A stretch of 3,361 bases of DNA from a phage, in the sequence record PZ195121.1; one strand, written 5' to 3'. The notes beneath the pieces are model-generated. The model was given only the letters and a program-made list of their open reading frames with translations, was not told the DNA's origin and searched no databases. The position numbers and the translations under genes are program-made. Below are positions 1 through 3,361 of the stretch, in pieces; positions within the stretch are counted from its first letter, which is position 1, and each line of letters opens with the position of its first letter.

Positions 1-51
1 TACCATGCCGTCAGGTTTAGGTGACGGTATATTCCATATACCGGAGGATCT
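1..51 (+). other. 5' untranslated leader (partial) upstream of the maturation gene, with stem-loops
   Basis: Seen in sequence: no convincing ORF with an RBS; potential hairpins CCGUCA(8-13)/UGACGG(22-27) and GGUAUAU(26-32)/AUAUACC(36-42, loop UCC) directly 5' of the Shine-Dalgarno. The two stems share G26-G27, so they are partly alternative folds. Window does not begin with the GGG typical of levivirus 5' ends, so the leader is probably incomplete. Confidence 0.6.
43..48 (+). promoter_or_regulatory. Shine-Dalgarno (GGAGGA) for the maturation protein gene
   Basis: GGAGGA at 43-48, followed by a 3-nt spacer and ATG at 52. Spacing is on the short side but acceptable. Confidence 0.6.
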
Positions 52-1224
52 ATGTTTCCGAAGTCAAATATCGATAGAAATTACAAGGTCAAACTTATCT
101 CTTACGACAAGAAAGGGAACCTTGTTTCCGACGACTCTTTCGAGCAAGTCGAAAACTATCTCTTTCAAAATCGTTCGAGTACGTATAAACCTGGTTATAT
201 CCGTCGCGACTTTCGAAGACCGACTAACTTTTGGAACGGCTTTCGCTGTTTCAACCAGCCAGTTGGTACCTTCACTCGGAAACTCTCTGATGGTGGGAGA
301 CAAGTTGCTGATTACGGCATTGTGAACCCTAATAAGTTCACTGCCAACAGTCAGCACTTGGGGGACAACATGGTAATTTACCCTGGTCCTTTCTCTATAA
401 ATATTGATCAGCGTGCTTCTGTCGAAGTCCTCAATAAGCTTTCACAATCGAACCTCAATATTGGGGTTGCAATTGCTGAAGCTAAGATGACTGCGTCATT
501 ACTCGCTAAACAATCTATAGCTCTCATCAGAGCCTACACTGCTGCAAAGCGCGGTAATTGGCGAGAGGTGTTTTCTCAACTCCTCATCTCCGAACACCGT
601 TTCAGAGCTCCTGCTAAGGATCTCGGAGGTCGATGGCTCGAACTGCAGTACGGTTGGTTACCCCTTATGAGCGATTTGAAAGCTGCATATGATTTGCTGA
701 CGCAAACCAAACTGCCTGCTTTCATGCCCTTGAGGGTCACCCGCACCGTTGGCGGAACGCACAGTTATAAAGTGCGCAACGTCGAATCTGCAGGGGATAC
801 TTGGTCCTATAGCGATCGTTTGTCGGTGAATTACCGAATATGGTATTTCATTTCCGATCCACGTCTCGCATGGGCTAGTTCCCTCGGGCTTCTTAACCCT
901 TTAGAAATTTATTGGGAAAAGACGCCTTGGTCGTTCGTTGTTGACTGGTTCTTACCTGTCGGTAATCTTATAGAAGCCATGAGTAATCCTCTTGGCCTCG
1001 ACATTATTTCCGGCACGAAGACCTGGCAACTTGAATCAAAACTCAATGCAACGCTTCTGGCTCCGGGCTGGTCTGGAACTGCAAAGTTGTCTGCATACGC
1101 GAAAGCATATGACAGATCTACTTTCTATTCCTTTCCCACCCCTTTGCCTTACGTGAAATCTCCACTTAGTGGTCTTCACTTAGCGAATGCATTGGCCTTA
1201 ATCAACCAACGCCTGAAAAGGTAA
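52..1224 (+). CDS. mat: Maturation protein (A protein; pilus-binding, RNA-attached virion protein)
   Basis: 390-aa ORF ending TAA (1222-1224). It is the first gene, directly upstream of an unmistakable levivirus coat gene, and the size matches group I/II levivirus A proteins (about 390 aa). RBS GGAGGA upstream. Function assigned by position, size and family context, not by a recognised motif. Confidence 0.88.
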
Positions 1225-1228
1225 TTAC

Positions 1229-1232
1229 GGAG
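1229..1232 (+). promoter_or_regulatory. Shine-Dalgarno (GGAG) for the coat gene
   Basis: GGAG at 1229-1232, 8 nt upstream of ATG 1241. The start codon lies in a small self-complementary element GCCAUAUGGC (1236-1245). Confidence 0.65.
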
Positions 1233-1240
1233 TTAGCCAT

Positions 1241-1633
1241 ATGGCAACTTTACGCAGTTTTGTACTCGTCGATAATGGCGGTACGGGGAATGTTACTGTC
1301 GTTCCTGTTAGCAATGCCAACGGCGTCGCTGAGTGGCTTTCTAATAACTCGCGCAGTCAAGCTTATCGCGTGACTGCCAGTTATCGTGCGTCAGGCGCGG
1401 ACAAGCGCAAATACACCATCAAACTTGAAGTGCCGAAGATCGTCACTCAAGTTGTAAACGGTGTTGAGCTGCCTGTTTCCGCATGGAAGGCTTACGCCTC
1501 TATTGACCTGACCATCCCTATCTTTGCTGCAACCGACGATGTGACCGTTATTTCCAAGTCACTCGCTGGTCTGTTCAAAGTTGGGAACCCTATCGCTGAC
1601 GCCATCTCTTCTCAGAGTGGCTTCTACGCATAA
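1241..1633 (+). CDS. cp: Coat (capsid) protein, levivirus group II (GA-like)
   Basis: 130-aa ORF, MATLRSFVLVDNGGTGNVTVVPVSNANGVAEWLSNNSRSQAYRVTASYRASGADKRKY...TIPIFAATDD...GNPIADAISSQSGFYA. Shows the conserved levivirus coat signature (FVLVDNGGTG, NGVAEWLS.NSRSQAY, ELTIPIF-like, GNPI) and is near-identical to my recollection of the phage GA coat protein. Single TAA stop with a second stop 2 codons downstream, so no read-through extension. Confidence 0.95.
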   Translation: MATLRSFVLVDNGGTGNVTVVPVSNANGVAEWLSNNSRSQAYRVTASYRASGADKRKYTIKLEVPKIVTQVVNGVELPVSAWKAYASIDLTIPIFAATDDVTVISKSLAGLFKVGNPIADAISSQSGFYA

Positions 1634-1824
1634 TGGGTCTGAAAGCAAAACATAAGGAAAACCTATGTTCCGATTCACAGAGGTCGAAAAGACTCTATGT
1701 ATGGATCGCACTCGCGATTGTGCTGTCCGATTTCACGTCTATCTTCAGTCATTGGATTTGGGGTCTTCTGATCCTCATTCTCCAGACTTTGATGGACTTG
1801 CCTACCTTCGTGATGAATGTTTAA
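1633..1824 (+). CDS. lys: Lysis protein (L-type single-gene lysis protein), overlapping coat stop and replicase start in a third frame
   Basis: 63-aa ORF whose ATG overlaps the coat stop (UAAUG at 1631-1635). Basic N-terminal region (KAKHKENL...RSKR) followed by a hydrophobic helix-like segment (LYVWIALAIVLSDFTSIFSHWIWGLLILILQTL) that contains an LS dipeptide, as in MS2 L. Position and size match the known lysis gene of group II leviviruses. Confidence 0.8.
   Translation: MGLKAKHKENLCSDSQRSKRLYVWIALAIVLSDFTSIFSHWIWGLLILILQTLMDLPTFVMNV
1649..1669 (+). promoter_or_regulatory. Coat-protein-binding translational operator hairpin at the replicase start (also the likely packaging signal)
   Basis: AACAUAAGGAAAACCUAUGUU folds as stem 1649-1653/1665-1669, bulged A1654, stem 1655-1657/1662-1664, tetraloop AAAA 1658-1661. 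The replicase AUG (1665-1667) is in the 3' arm and the SD (AGGA, 1655-1658) is in the stem/loop. Architecture matches the MS2/GA operator (bulged purine plus 4-nt A-rich loop). Confidence 0.85.
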
Positions 1825-3263
1825 CTAAACACCCCTCACTTGGAGACAGTAATTCGGACGCACGCCGTAAGGAATTGGCATATGCCAAACTTATGGATAG
1901 TGATCAAAGATGCAAAATCCAAAACAGTAACGGATACGACTACTCTCATATCGAGAGTGGCGTACTGAGTGGTATACTCAAGACCGCTCAGGCCCTTGTG
2001 GCGAACTTGCTTACGGGTTTTGAATCTCACTTCCTGAACGATTGTTCATTCTCCAATGGAGCCTCACAAGGGTTCAAGTTGCGGGATGCAGCGCCGTTTA
2101 AGAAGATCGCTGGGCAAGCAACCGTTACAGCTCCTGCTTATGACATTGCCGTGGCCGCCGTTAAAACGTGCGCACCGTGGTATGCTTATATGCAGGAAAC
2201 GTATGGCGATGAGACCAAATGGTTTCGTCGGGTATACGGCAACGGTTTGTTTTCTGTTCCGAAGAACAATAAAATAGATCGGGCTGCCTGTAAGGAGCCT
2301 GATATGAATATGTACCTTCAGAAAGGGGCGGGTTCTTTTATAAGAAAACGCCTTCGTTCTGTCGGTATAGATCTTAACGATCAAACGTGCAATCAGGAAT
2401 TAGCCCGACTTGGCAGCATTGATGGTTCACTTGCTACTATTGATCTTAGTAGCGCTAGTGATTCTATCTCTGACCGCCTCGTCTGGGATTTACTTCCACC
2501 GCACGTTTATTCATACCTCGCTCGTATTCGTTCGTCTTTCACTATGATCGACGGACGGTTACACAAGTGGGGTCTATTTTCTACCATGGGCAATGGCTTT
2601 ACATTCGAACTCGAGTCCATGATCTTTTGGGCTCTAAGTAAGAGTGTTATGCTATCCATGGGTGTTACTGGCTCATTAGGCATCTACGGTGATGATATAA
2701 TCGTCCCCGTTGAGTGTGCCCCGACCCTCCTTAAGGTACTATCCGCCGTAAACTTTCTTCCAAATGAAAAGAAGACGTTTATAACGGGTTACTTTCGTGA
2801 GAGTTGTGGTGCTCATTTCTTTAAAGGTGCCGACATGAAACCTTTTTACTGCAAGCGGCCAATGGAAACCCTTCCCGATGTCATGTTGCTTTGCAACAGG
2901 ATAAGGGGTTGGCAGACCGTTGGTGGAATGTCAGATCCGCGGCTCTTTCCTATTTGGAAGGAGTTCGCTGATATGATTCCGCCGAAGTTTAAGGGTGGAT
3001 GTAACCTAGATCGCGACACTTACCTCGTTTCGCCGGATAAACCCGGTGATACATTGGTTCGTATCGCTAAGGTACGCTCTGGTTTTAACCATGCGTTCCC
3101 GTACGGTCATGAAAGTGGCCGTTACGTCCATTGGTTACATATGGGATCGGGAGAAGTTCTCGAGACCATATCCTCCGCCAGGTTCAGGTGCAAACCTAAC
3201 TCGGAATGGAGAACACAGATCCCTCTATTTCCACAGGAATTAGAGGCCTGCGTTCTCTCCTGA
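1665..3263 (+). CDS. rep: RNA-dependent RNA polymerase (replicase beta subunit)
   Basis: 532-aa ORF. Catalytic YGDD motif (LGIYGDDIIVP; GDD codons at 2688-2696, in frame). Last and largest gene in canonical levivirus order. Tandem stops UGA-UAG at 3261-3266. Confidence 0.95.
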   Translation: MFRFTEVEKTLCMDRTRDCAVRFHVYLQSLDLGSSDPHSPDFDGLAYLRDECLTKHPSLGDSNSDARRKELAYAKLMDSDQRCKIQNSNGYDYSHIESGVLSGILKTAQALVANLLTGFESHFLNDCSFSNGASQGFKLRDAAPFKKIAGQATVTAPAYDIAVAAVKTCAPWYAYMQETYGDETKWFRRVYGNGLFSVPKNNKIDRAACKEPDMNMYLQKGAGSFIRKRLRSVGIDLNDQTCNQELARLGSIDGSLATIDLSSASDSISDRLVWDLLPPHVYSYLARIRSSFTMIDGRLHKWGLFSTMGNGFTFELESMIFWALSKSVMLSMGVTGSLGIYGDDIIVPVECAPTLLKVLSAVNFLPNEKKTFITGYFRESCGAHFFKGADMKPFYCKRPMETLPDVMLLCNRIRGWQTVGGMSDPRLFPIWKEFADMIPPKFKGGCNLDRDTYLVSPDKPGDTLVRIAKVRSGFNHAFPYGHESGRYVHWLHMGSGEVLETISSARFRCKPNSEWRTQIPLFPQELEACVLS

Positions 3264-3361
3264 TAGTATCAGGACCTCCCCGGACGGGGTGGGTGTGACC
3301 GAAAGGCCACTATGGAGGTGAATCCTCCACCGCCCAAAAGGCGGTTATCGGTGACTAGTTT
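3264..3361 (+). other. 3' untranslated region (probably truncated) with multiple stable stem-loops
   Basis: Seen in sequence: hairpins CCUGA(3259-3263)/UCAGG(3269-3273) enclosing the replicase stop, CCCC(3278-3281)/GGGG(3286-3289) with loop GGAC, GGAGG(3314-3318)/CCUCC(3324-3328), and ACCGCC(3329-3334)/GGCGGU(3340-3345) with loop CAAAA. Window ends ...GACUAGUUU rather than the ...CCCA 3' terminus expected for leviviruses. Confidence 0.6.

Follow-up and report, generated by a model that had tools for sequence, protein, structure and literature searches.

Almost full-length genome copy of a predicted F-specific RNA coliphage of the GA/BZ13 type

The stretch of DNA analyzed here (3361 nt, the whole of which we call the window) carries four open reading frames on the + strand, exactly in the order and with the sizes given in a preliminary description made from its letters (maturation-coat-(lysis)-replicase, 390/130/63/532 aa). 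All four proteins match levivirus Pfam families, as that description had proposed (Table 1), and the arrangement is the layout of Fiersviridae and Emesvirus, in which a plus-sense genome of ~3.4–3.6 kb carries maturation, coat, and replicase genes on one strand together with a small overlapping lysis gene. The YGDD motif that had been noticed in the replicase lies at residues 341–344 (nt 2685–2696), and the Shine-Dalgarno sequence GGAGG at 43–47, upstream of the maturation gene, corresponds to the annotated ribosome-binding site of the GA record (127–131). The lysis protein scores 29.3 bits against Phage_MS2_lysis, for which the cut-off is 25, and its gene coincides in position with the annotated lysis genes of GA and of BZ13 strains DL20 and DL10; the lysis AUG and the coat stop codon overlap in UAAUG (1631–1635), and the gene overlaps the start of the replicase in a different frame. 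After the coat UAA (1631–1633) the frame continues TGG GTC TGA, and read-through would add only two residues. Given this TGA three codons past the coat stop, the window has no A1 read-through gene as in Qubevirus (groups III and IV), the coat read-through (A1) protein being the feature that separates Qubevirus from Emesvirus japonicum. An additional + strand ORF (5–325, 106 aa) and ORFs on the minus strand, the longest of 106 aa, were rejected as chance ORFs, given their overlap with the real genes and a substitution pattern that follows the annotated frames.

Table 1. Positions of genes, untranslated regions, and RNA hairpins in the 3361-nt window
Feature	Position (nt)	Strand	Basis
5′ untranslated region, partial	1..51	+	Alignment with GA, KU1, DL20, and Logan contigs
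Maturation (A, assembly) protein gene, 390 aa	52..1224	+	ORF; Pfam PF03863 Phage_mat-A, E 8e-62
Coat protein gene, 130 aa including initiator Met	1241..1633	+	ORF; Pfam PF01819 Levi_coat, E 2e-38
Hairpin just upstream of coat stop/lysis start, presumed lysis-gene translational control element	1599..1623	+	Fold; GA annotation
Lysis protein gene, 63 aa	1633..1824	+	ORF; Pfam PF11125 Phage_MS2_lysis, E 9e-7
Replicase translational operator hairpin (presumed coat-protein binding site)	1648..1668	+	Fold; Rfam partial match; GA annotation
Replicase beta subunit (RNA-dependent RNA polymerase) gene, 532 aa	1665..3263	+	ORF; Pfam PF03431 RNA_replicase_B, E 6e-219
3′ untranslated region, partial	3264..3361	+	Alignment and extra 3′ sequence of DL20, GA, and KU1

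The operator hairpin claimed in the preliminary description was recovered by folding, with a minimum free energy structure of 5 bp, a bulged A, 2 bp, and an AAAA loop, and with the replicase AUG (1665–1667) in its 3′ arm; an operator of the Rfam RF02359 type has a bulged purine, a 4-nt loop, and a hairpin enclosing the replicase start codon. Its sequence is identical across all 16 group II sequences aligned, and also to nt 1733–1753 of the GA record, labeled there “pot. binding site coat protein.” Against the MS2 model itself (RF02359) it reaches 18.1 bits (E 0.49, model positions 16–36 of 36) compared with a gathering score of 40, and in the Rfam alignment a G-C pair of the MS2 consensus is replaced by A-U, a compensatory change; nothing besides this sub-threshold hairpin was returned by the Rfam scan of the window. 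The hairpin before the lysis gene folds with −9.7 kcal/mol (z −3.5), which none of 200 shuffled sequences equaled, is conserved like the operator, and corresponds to GA 1683–1707, annotated “pot. function in lysis gene control.” A simple duplex search upstream of the operator for Min Jou-type long-range pairing of 1634–1650 with the coat gene gave a best value of −14.3 kcal/mol, equaled by 43 of 300 shuffles and hence not significant, and no covariation was seen.

Compared with GA (X03869), the window is 85 nt short at the 5′ end and 20 nt short at the 3′ end, and the earlier wording “near-complete” is therefore accurate. A complete levivirus genome has authentic termini, namely a 5′ GG-rich hairpin and a 3′ end ...ACCACCCA, and genomes of the GA/KU1 type begin in the form GG..CGCCCCUUUCGGGGCG... 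In the window both termini are absent: the last 20 nt, which read GCTTGGCTAGTCACCACCCA in relatives, are missing, and the 3′-terminal helix is represented by its 5′ arm alone (GGTGACTAG at 3350–3358), the partner arm CTAGTCACC falling in the missing 3′ part (that the two arms are reverse complements was read directly from the DL20, GA, and KU1 sequences). Sequencing or assembly truncation, and not biological deletion, most simply accounts for the missing 85 and 20 nt.

Nucleotide matches over the whole window were found only to records of the Fiersviridae species Emesvirus japonicum (GA, BZ13 strains DL10, DL20, and T72, and KU1). The closest is DL20, with 95.9% identity over all 3361 nt (137 mismatches, no gaps), followed by DL10 (94.9%, aligned end to end) and by GA (94.4% end to end, 186–187 mismatches), while T72 and KU1 align over the whole window at ~85%. 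The count of differences from the GA reference, which the preliminary description had put forward as a check, comes to ~187 substitutions and 2 gap columns, and its assignment to GA holds as to type (group II, GA type) but not as to the nearest record, which is DL20 and not the GA prototype. Eight further GA-like contigs in public ENA and Logan assemblies have 93.8–95.7% identity, and neither these nor the three IMG/VR fragments found include a relative closer than DL20. There was no identical sequence in any collection searched; a 153-billion-gene index has no record of the exact replicase protein, and an exact 25-mer with two window-private bases (1040–1064) had no match in IMG/VR or JGI metagenome contigs. 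Judged by these alignments, the window is a distinct strain, ~4% from the nearest relative found.

Membership in a species and a genus is decided by pairwise amino acid identity of the RdRp, with thresholds of ≥80% for the species and ≥50% to genus members for the genus (PMC8743537). The window replicase is ~53% identical to MS2 replicases and 90–98% identical to those of GA, BZ13, and KU1, as expected within Emesvirus, and the individual values (98.5% for DL20, 97.6% for DL10, 97.4% for GA, 90.0% for T72, and 89.7% for KU1) all lie above the species threshold; we counted those for GA and DL20 in favor of membership in Emesvirus japonicum. The GA sub-lineage is recognized by a UAAUG overlap of coat stop and lysis AUG and by the lack of the 18-nt insertion seen in KU1 and T72, and this is the arrangement in the window when 1595–1675 is aligned with the 16 group II sequences. 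The preliminary description was also right that the coat protein is almost exactly that of GA, 128 of 129 residues being identical to the crystallized GA capsid protein (PDB 1GAV) with one residue different. Against the X03869 coat there are three differences; that record has A59 and G79, whereas the window, 1GAV, DL20, DL10, T72, and KU1 have T and V there.

Almost certainly, then, the window is a plus-strand-sense cDNA or assembled copy that covers ~97% of an F-specific ssRNA coliphage genome of group II (genogroup GII), from a phage that falls within Emesvirus japonicum (Fiersviridae) into the GA/DL20 subtype and encodes the four canonical proteins, with gene functions as read from the MS2 and GA systems; nothing observed contradicts this reading. 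An F-specific RNA coliphage is defined biologically, by an RNA genome, RNase-sensitive infection via the F pilus of E. coli, and here serogroup II; we infer the RNA nature, the F-pilus infection, and the serogroup from 94–96% identity to cultured group II isolates, and on that footing the window reproduces nearly the full length of the RNA genome of a presumed F-pilus-specific, GA/BZ13-type coliphage. The same four genes are annotated at matching positions in the GA, BZ13, and KU1 relatives. As had been anticipated, the system is well described and not novel: this is a strain-level variant of an ordinary, long-described virus, and its organization holds nothing new.

Of the 131 coding differences from DL20, 114 fall at third codon positions, and dN/dS against relatives is 0.02–0.06 for the maturation, coat, and replicase genes (0.03–0.04 for maturation), a pattern in which purifying selection is evident and which argues for a functional genome. 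It bears too on whether the window could be a cDNA construct made in the laboratory, or an element carried on DNA, instead of a sampled viral RNA genome, a reading that the presentation of the sequence as DNA and the absence of both termini would suit. We consider that origin extremely improbable: the window differs from every known strain by at least 137 substitutions, mostly synonymous, as in natural divergence, vector sequence is absent, and megablast found no match to it among 72,556 plasmids or 5,426 complete E. coli genomes. Promoter-like sites (3 versus 4.1 expected from shuffled sequence) and terminator-like sites (2 versus 3.0) are at chance level. The missing plasmid and E. coli matches and the chance-level DNA signals are consistent with an RNA genome without a DNA stage, and the preliminary description was right to hold that DNA-oriented features do not apply. 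Its further statement that only the + strand is biologically meaningful stands insofar as the minus strand is non-coding; the levivirus minus strand is, however, the template for replication and so is not meaningless.

The divergence of this sampled RNA genome from its relatives could be clonal, or the genome could be a mosaic from recombination among GA-like group II strains. The nearest neighbor does vary along the window (DL20 at ~150–750, GA at ~900–1200, Logan SRR30876066 at ~1950–2550), and a two-breakpoint max-chi-square test gave permutation p values of 0.015 for DL20 versus ENA ERZ21845985 and 0.030 for DL20 versus SRR30876066, but three other comparisons gave p 0.12–0.27 and the two low values are lost after correction for five tests. 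Moreover, the candidate parents differ by only 1–3% identity per 300-nt window, and no parent with >99% identity was found for any segment. With sliding-window and max-chi-square scans yielding weak, uncorrected signals only, we regard a mosaic origin as unlikely. Natural intergroup recombinants have been described (PMC3499819), and a group I × group II origin, like that of the JS strains DL52 and DL54, would be in keeping with two observations at the 5′ edge. The DL20 record runs 77 nt further upstream (and 20 nt further downstream), and this MS2-like 5′-terminal 77 nt stops exactly at the window start; the window shares with MS2 and DL20 a T at its nt 1, where all other group II genomes have C. 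That one shared base is the sole evidence within the window, however, every 300-nt segment of which is 92–99% identical to GA-like genomes, and MS2-type genomes match it at nt 2238–2641 only, with 74–77% identity, making an intergroup recombinant highly improbable. It is likewise quite doubtful that the window stands for a GA-like lineage not sequenced before, ~4% away from all genomes found, that might be a group II mosaic or share the MS2-like 5′ end of DL20; if it were so, it would add one more case of natural recombination in leviviruses.

For the clonally diverged GA-type genome that we favor, the working of the genes can be proposed by analogy with MS2 and GA, both of them well studied. 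The plus strand would serve as mRNA, and the maturation protein would bind both the RNA and the F pilus. The replicase subunit together with host factors would copy the RNA through a minus strand. Late in infection, dimers of the coat protein, bound to the operator hairpin with the replicase AUG, would turn replicase synthesis off. The lysis gene, with its AUG in UAAUG behind a stable hairpin, would probably be translated at a low level by ribosomes ending the coat gene.

In practice, the window is best handled as the genome of an RNA phage whose four genes and regulatory RNA hairpins are already known, and should not be searched for DNA features. Human fecal and sewage contamination is monitored with group II F-specific RNA phages as indicators. 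Within this group, DL20-like strains were reported to be the predominant GII type in wastewater (PMC6963950). An extra strain widens the known diversity slightly and raises no new biological question, its value being mainly bookkeeping.

Set beside known systems, the window is nearest to DL20 (FJ483839), which came from a clam in Narragansett Bay and has four genes of the same lengths and relative positions, with 5 amino acid differences in the maturation protein, 1 each in the coat and lysis proteins, and 8 in the replicase; the coat protein of DL10 likewise differs at 1 residue. GA (X03869/NC_001426), the group II prototype, has the same organization, UAAUG overlap, and operator hairpin, and differs by two single-base indels in untranslated regions (window nt 32 and after nt 3325) and by 10, 3, 2, and 14 amino acids in the maturation, coat, lysis, and replicase proteins, respectively. 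KU1 (AF227250) and T72 (FJ483838) form the other group II sub-lineage, which at ~90% RdRp amino acid identity belongs to the same species by the RdRp criterion; gene order and operator hairpin are the same, but in both phages 18 nt are inserted between coat stop and lysis start, and another 3 nt ahead of the operator; the window has neither insertion. With MS2 (Emesvirus zinderi, group I) the window has in common the genus, the gene order, the architecture of the operator hairpin, and the protein families. The nucleotide match to MS2-type genomes is confined to a replicase core of ~400 nt, and the MS2 operator has an AUUA loop where that of the window is AAAA. The MS2 lysis gene begins within the coat gene, whereas that of the window begins at the coat stop codon.

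Six of the 50,697 phage records searched by megablast span the whole window, and all six are Emesvirus japonicum, the species of the group II F-specific RNA coliphages. In a MAFFT alignment the closest is BZ13 strain DL20, with 95.9% identity (137 mismatches, 0 gap columns), followed by BZ13 strain DL10 (94.9%, 173 mismatches, 1 gap column), the group II prototype GA (X03869/NC_001426; 94.4%, 187 mismatches, 2 gap columns), BZ13 strain T72 (85.8%, 477 mismatches, 30 gap columns) and KU1 (84.7%, 514 mismatches, 23 gap columns). This nucleotide comparison bears out the GA-like levivirus identity proposed in the preliminary description. 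At the protein level, the maturation, coat, lysis and replicase products differ from those of GA at 10, 3, 2 and 14 residues and from those of DL20 at 5, 1, 1 and 8 residues, respectively. The RdRp identities are 98.5% to DL20, 97.4% to GA, ∼90% to KU1 and T72, and ∼53% to MS2; judged by the published species (80%) and genus (50%) thresholds (PMC8743537), the sequence can be assigned to the species Emesvirus japonicum, genus Emesvirus. The finding is correct but ordinary: both the species and the genome organization are already known, and the window is a new strain-level variant of Emesvirus japonicum.

Four long open reading frames, all on the plus strand, cover ∼95% of the 3361 nt, and the gene sizes, gene order and motifs given in the preliminary description were all recovered. 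In the translated replicase, DLSSASDS and STMGNGFTFELES motifs flank the YGDD. Beyond the coat stop codon only two sense codons (TGG GTC) precede an in-frame TGA; the coat frame closes there, and there is thus no read-through gene of the Qubevirus type. A 106-aa ATG-initiated frame at 5-325 of the plus strand, which overlaps the beginning of the maturation gene out of phase with it, was rejected as a gene for want of support and is taken as a chance ORF.

Coordinates of genes, motifs and RNA elements in the window
Feature	Position	Strand	Product or sequence	Evidence or description
Maturation gene	52-1224	+	390 aa	Pfam Phage_mat-A, E 8e-62
Coat gene	1241-1633	+	130 aa	Pfam Levi_coat, E 2e-38
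Coat codon 59	1415-1417		Thr
Coat codon 79	1475-1477		Val
Lysis hairpin	1599-1623	+		-9.7 kcal/mol, z -3.5; shortly before UAAUG
Lysis gene	1633-1824	+	63 aa	Pfam Phage_MS2_lysis, 29.3 bits, cut-off 25
Operator hairpin	1648-1668	+	AAACAUAAGGAAAACCUAUGU	Fold: 5-bp stem, bulged A, 2-bp stem, AAAA loop
Replicase gene	1665-3263	+	532 aa	Pfam RNA_replicase_B, E 6e-219
YGDD motif	2685-2696			Replicase residues 341-344
Terminal helix, 5' arm	3350-3358		GGTGACTAG

By analogy with the established biology of MS2 and GA, the plus strand would serve as mRNA, coat dimers would bind the operator hairpin and repress replicase translation, and termination of coat translation at UAAUG would be coupled to translation of the lysis gene. 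The maturation protein would mediate attachment to the F-pilus, and the replicase subunit would act with host factors to copy the RNA through a minus strand, which would therefore be a template, though non-coding; its longest ORF (106 aa) lies within the replicase gene.

Compared with GA, the window lacks the 5'-terminal 85 nt and the 3'-terminal 20 nt. The relatives end in GCTTGGCTAGTCACCACCCA, and only the 5' arm of the terminal helix is retained in the window. With all four genes whole and 97% of the GA genome length present, "near-complete" was an accurate description. The first 77 nt of the DL20 record (FJ483839) are nearly identical to the 5' end of MS2 (V00642 nt 1-75, plus two additional T) and do not resemble GA, KU1 or the GA-like Logan contigs. 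The junction at the end of this MS2-like stretch coincides exactly with the start of the window, whose first nucleotide is T; MS2 and DL20 also have T there, and every other group II genome has C. The MS2-like end of DL20 reflects either a primer/RACE artefact in the record or an intergroup exchange. Within the window itself, intergroup recombination is not supported, as nucleotide matches to MS2-type genomes are confined to nt 2238-2641 (74-77%) and sliding-window identities lend it no support. The nearest neighbor changes modestly along the genome, and two out of five max-chi-square comparisons gave low p values (0.015 and 0.030), but the case for recombination among group II strains is not convincing once these are corrected.

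Assemblies in ENA (ERZ21844407, ERZ21845985) and Logan (SRR30876066, SRR30875675, SRR30876228, ERR2217812, ERR2217907, SRR17509909) yielded eight GA-like contigs, L030-L037 in our numbering, that are near-full or partial in length and 93.8-95.7% identical to the window. None is nearer than DL20, and the window is therefore a distinct strain, ∼4% from everything found in the collections searched, which were without the partial GenBank records of the group II strains BZ13, TH1, TL2 and JP34 (listed in PMC6963950). GA-like genomes recur as near-full contigs across several unrelated public sequencing runs. The replicase falls in a 19-member cluster at 90% identity, the exact protein had no entry in the gene index, and an exact 25-mer with two window-private bases had no match in IMG/VR or JGI metagenome contigs. 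Private to the window are 19 nucleotides and five amino acids (maturation S43, S238 and L336; replicase V7 and S484).

The coding sequence differs from that of DL20 at 131 sites, 114 of them third codon positions, and against both DL20 and GA the maturation, coat and replicase genes have dN/dS values of 0.02-0.06, a substitution pattern that is evidence for a functional genome. An origin as a DNA element or laboratory construct is unlikely given this pattern of divergence, which is that of natural evolution, together with zero matches in plasmids or E. coli genomes and promoter and terminator motifs at chance level. Conservation is unusually high where the lysis and replicase genes overlap and immediately downstream (1633-1950), at 97-99% among GA-like strains; the sliding window at 1651-1950 retains 96% identity even to KU1 and T72, versus 76-90% elsewhere, and the lysis frame shows a synonymous divergence of ∼0.02-0.05 versus ∼0.2 elsewhere. 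Such strong conservation is expected, since two reading frames and the RNA operator overlap there.

The operator hairpin, whose 3' arm contains the replicase AUG, is unchanged in 16 of 16 aligned group II sequences and corresponds to the X03869 feature "pot. binding site coat protein"; it is the GA-type equivalent of the translational operator in MS2. It differs from the MS2 consensus by a compensatory G-C to A-U change and scores 18.1 bits with the Rfam MS2 model, below the gathering score of 40 and thus outside formal Rfam membership. The lysis hairpin, a stable one, coincides with the GA feature "pot. function in lysis gene control," and the UAAUG that follows is the overlap of coat stop and lysis start. 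A test for long-range pairing of the Min Jou type gave no significant result. In KU1, T72 and three IMG/VR fragments, an insertion of 18 nt separates the coat stop from the lysis start; its absence from the window places the window in the GA sub-lineage of group II. All KU1/T72-type sequences (L004, L005, L008, L009 and L015) also carry a 3-nt insertion before the operator, and these common insertions mark out a second, stable sub-lineage within group II.

The coat protein is identical to the crystallized GA capsid protein (1GAV) at 128 of 129 residues, the sole difference being D for E at residue 120 (initiator Met counted). The GA record X03869/NC_001426 instead has Ala-59 and Gly-79, which look peculiar to that 1986 record: the window shares Thr-59 and Val-79 with PDB entries 1GAV and 1UNA and with DL20, DL10, T72 and KU1, and MS2 likewise has Thr at the position aligned to codon 59.
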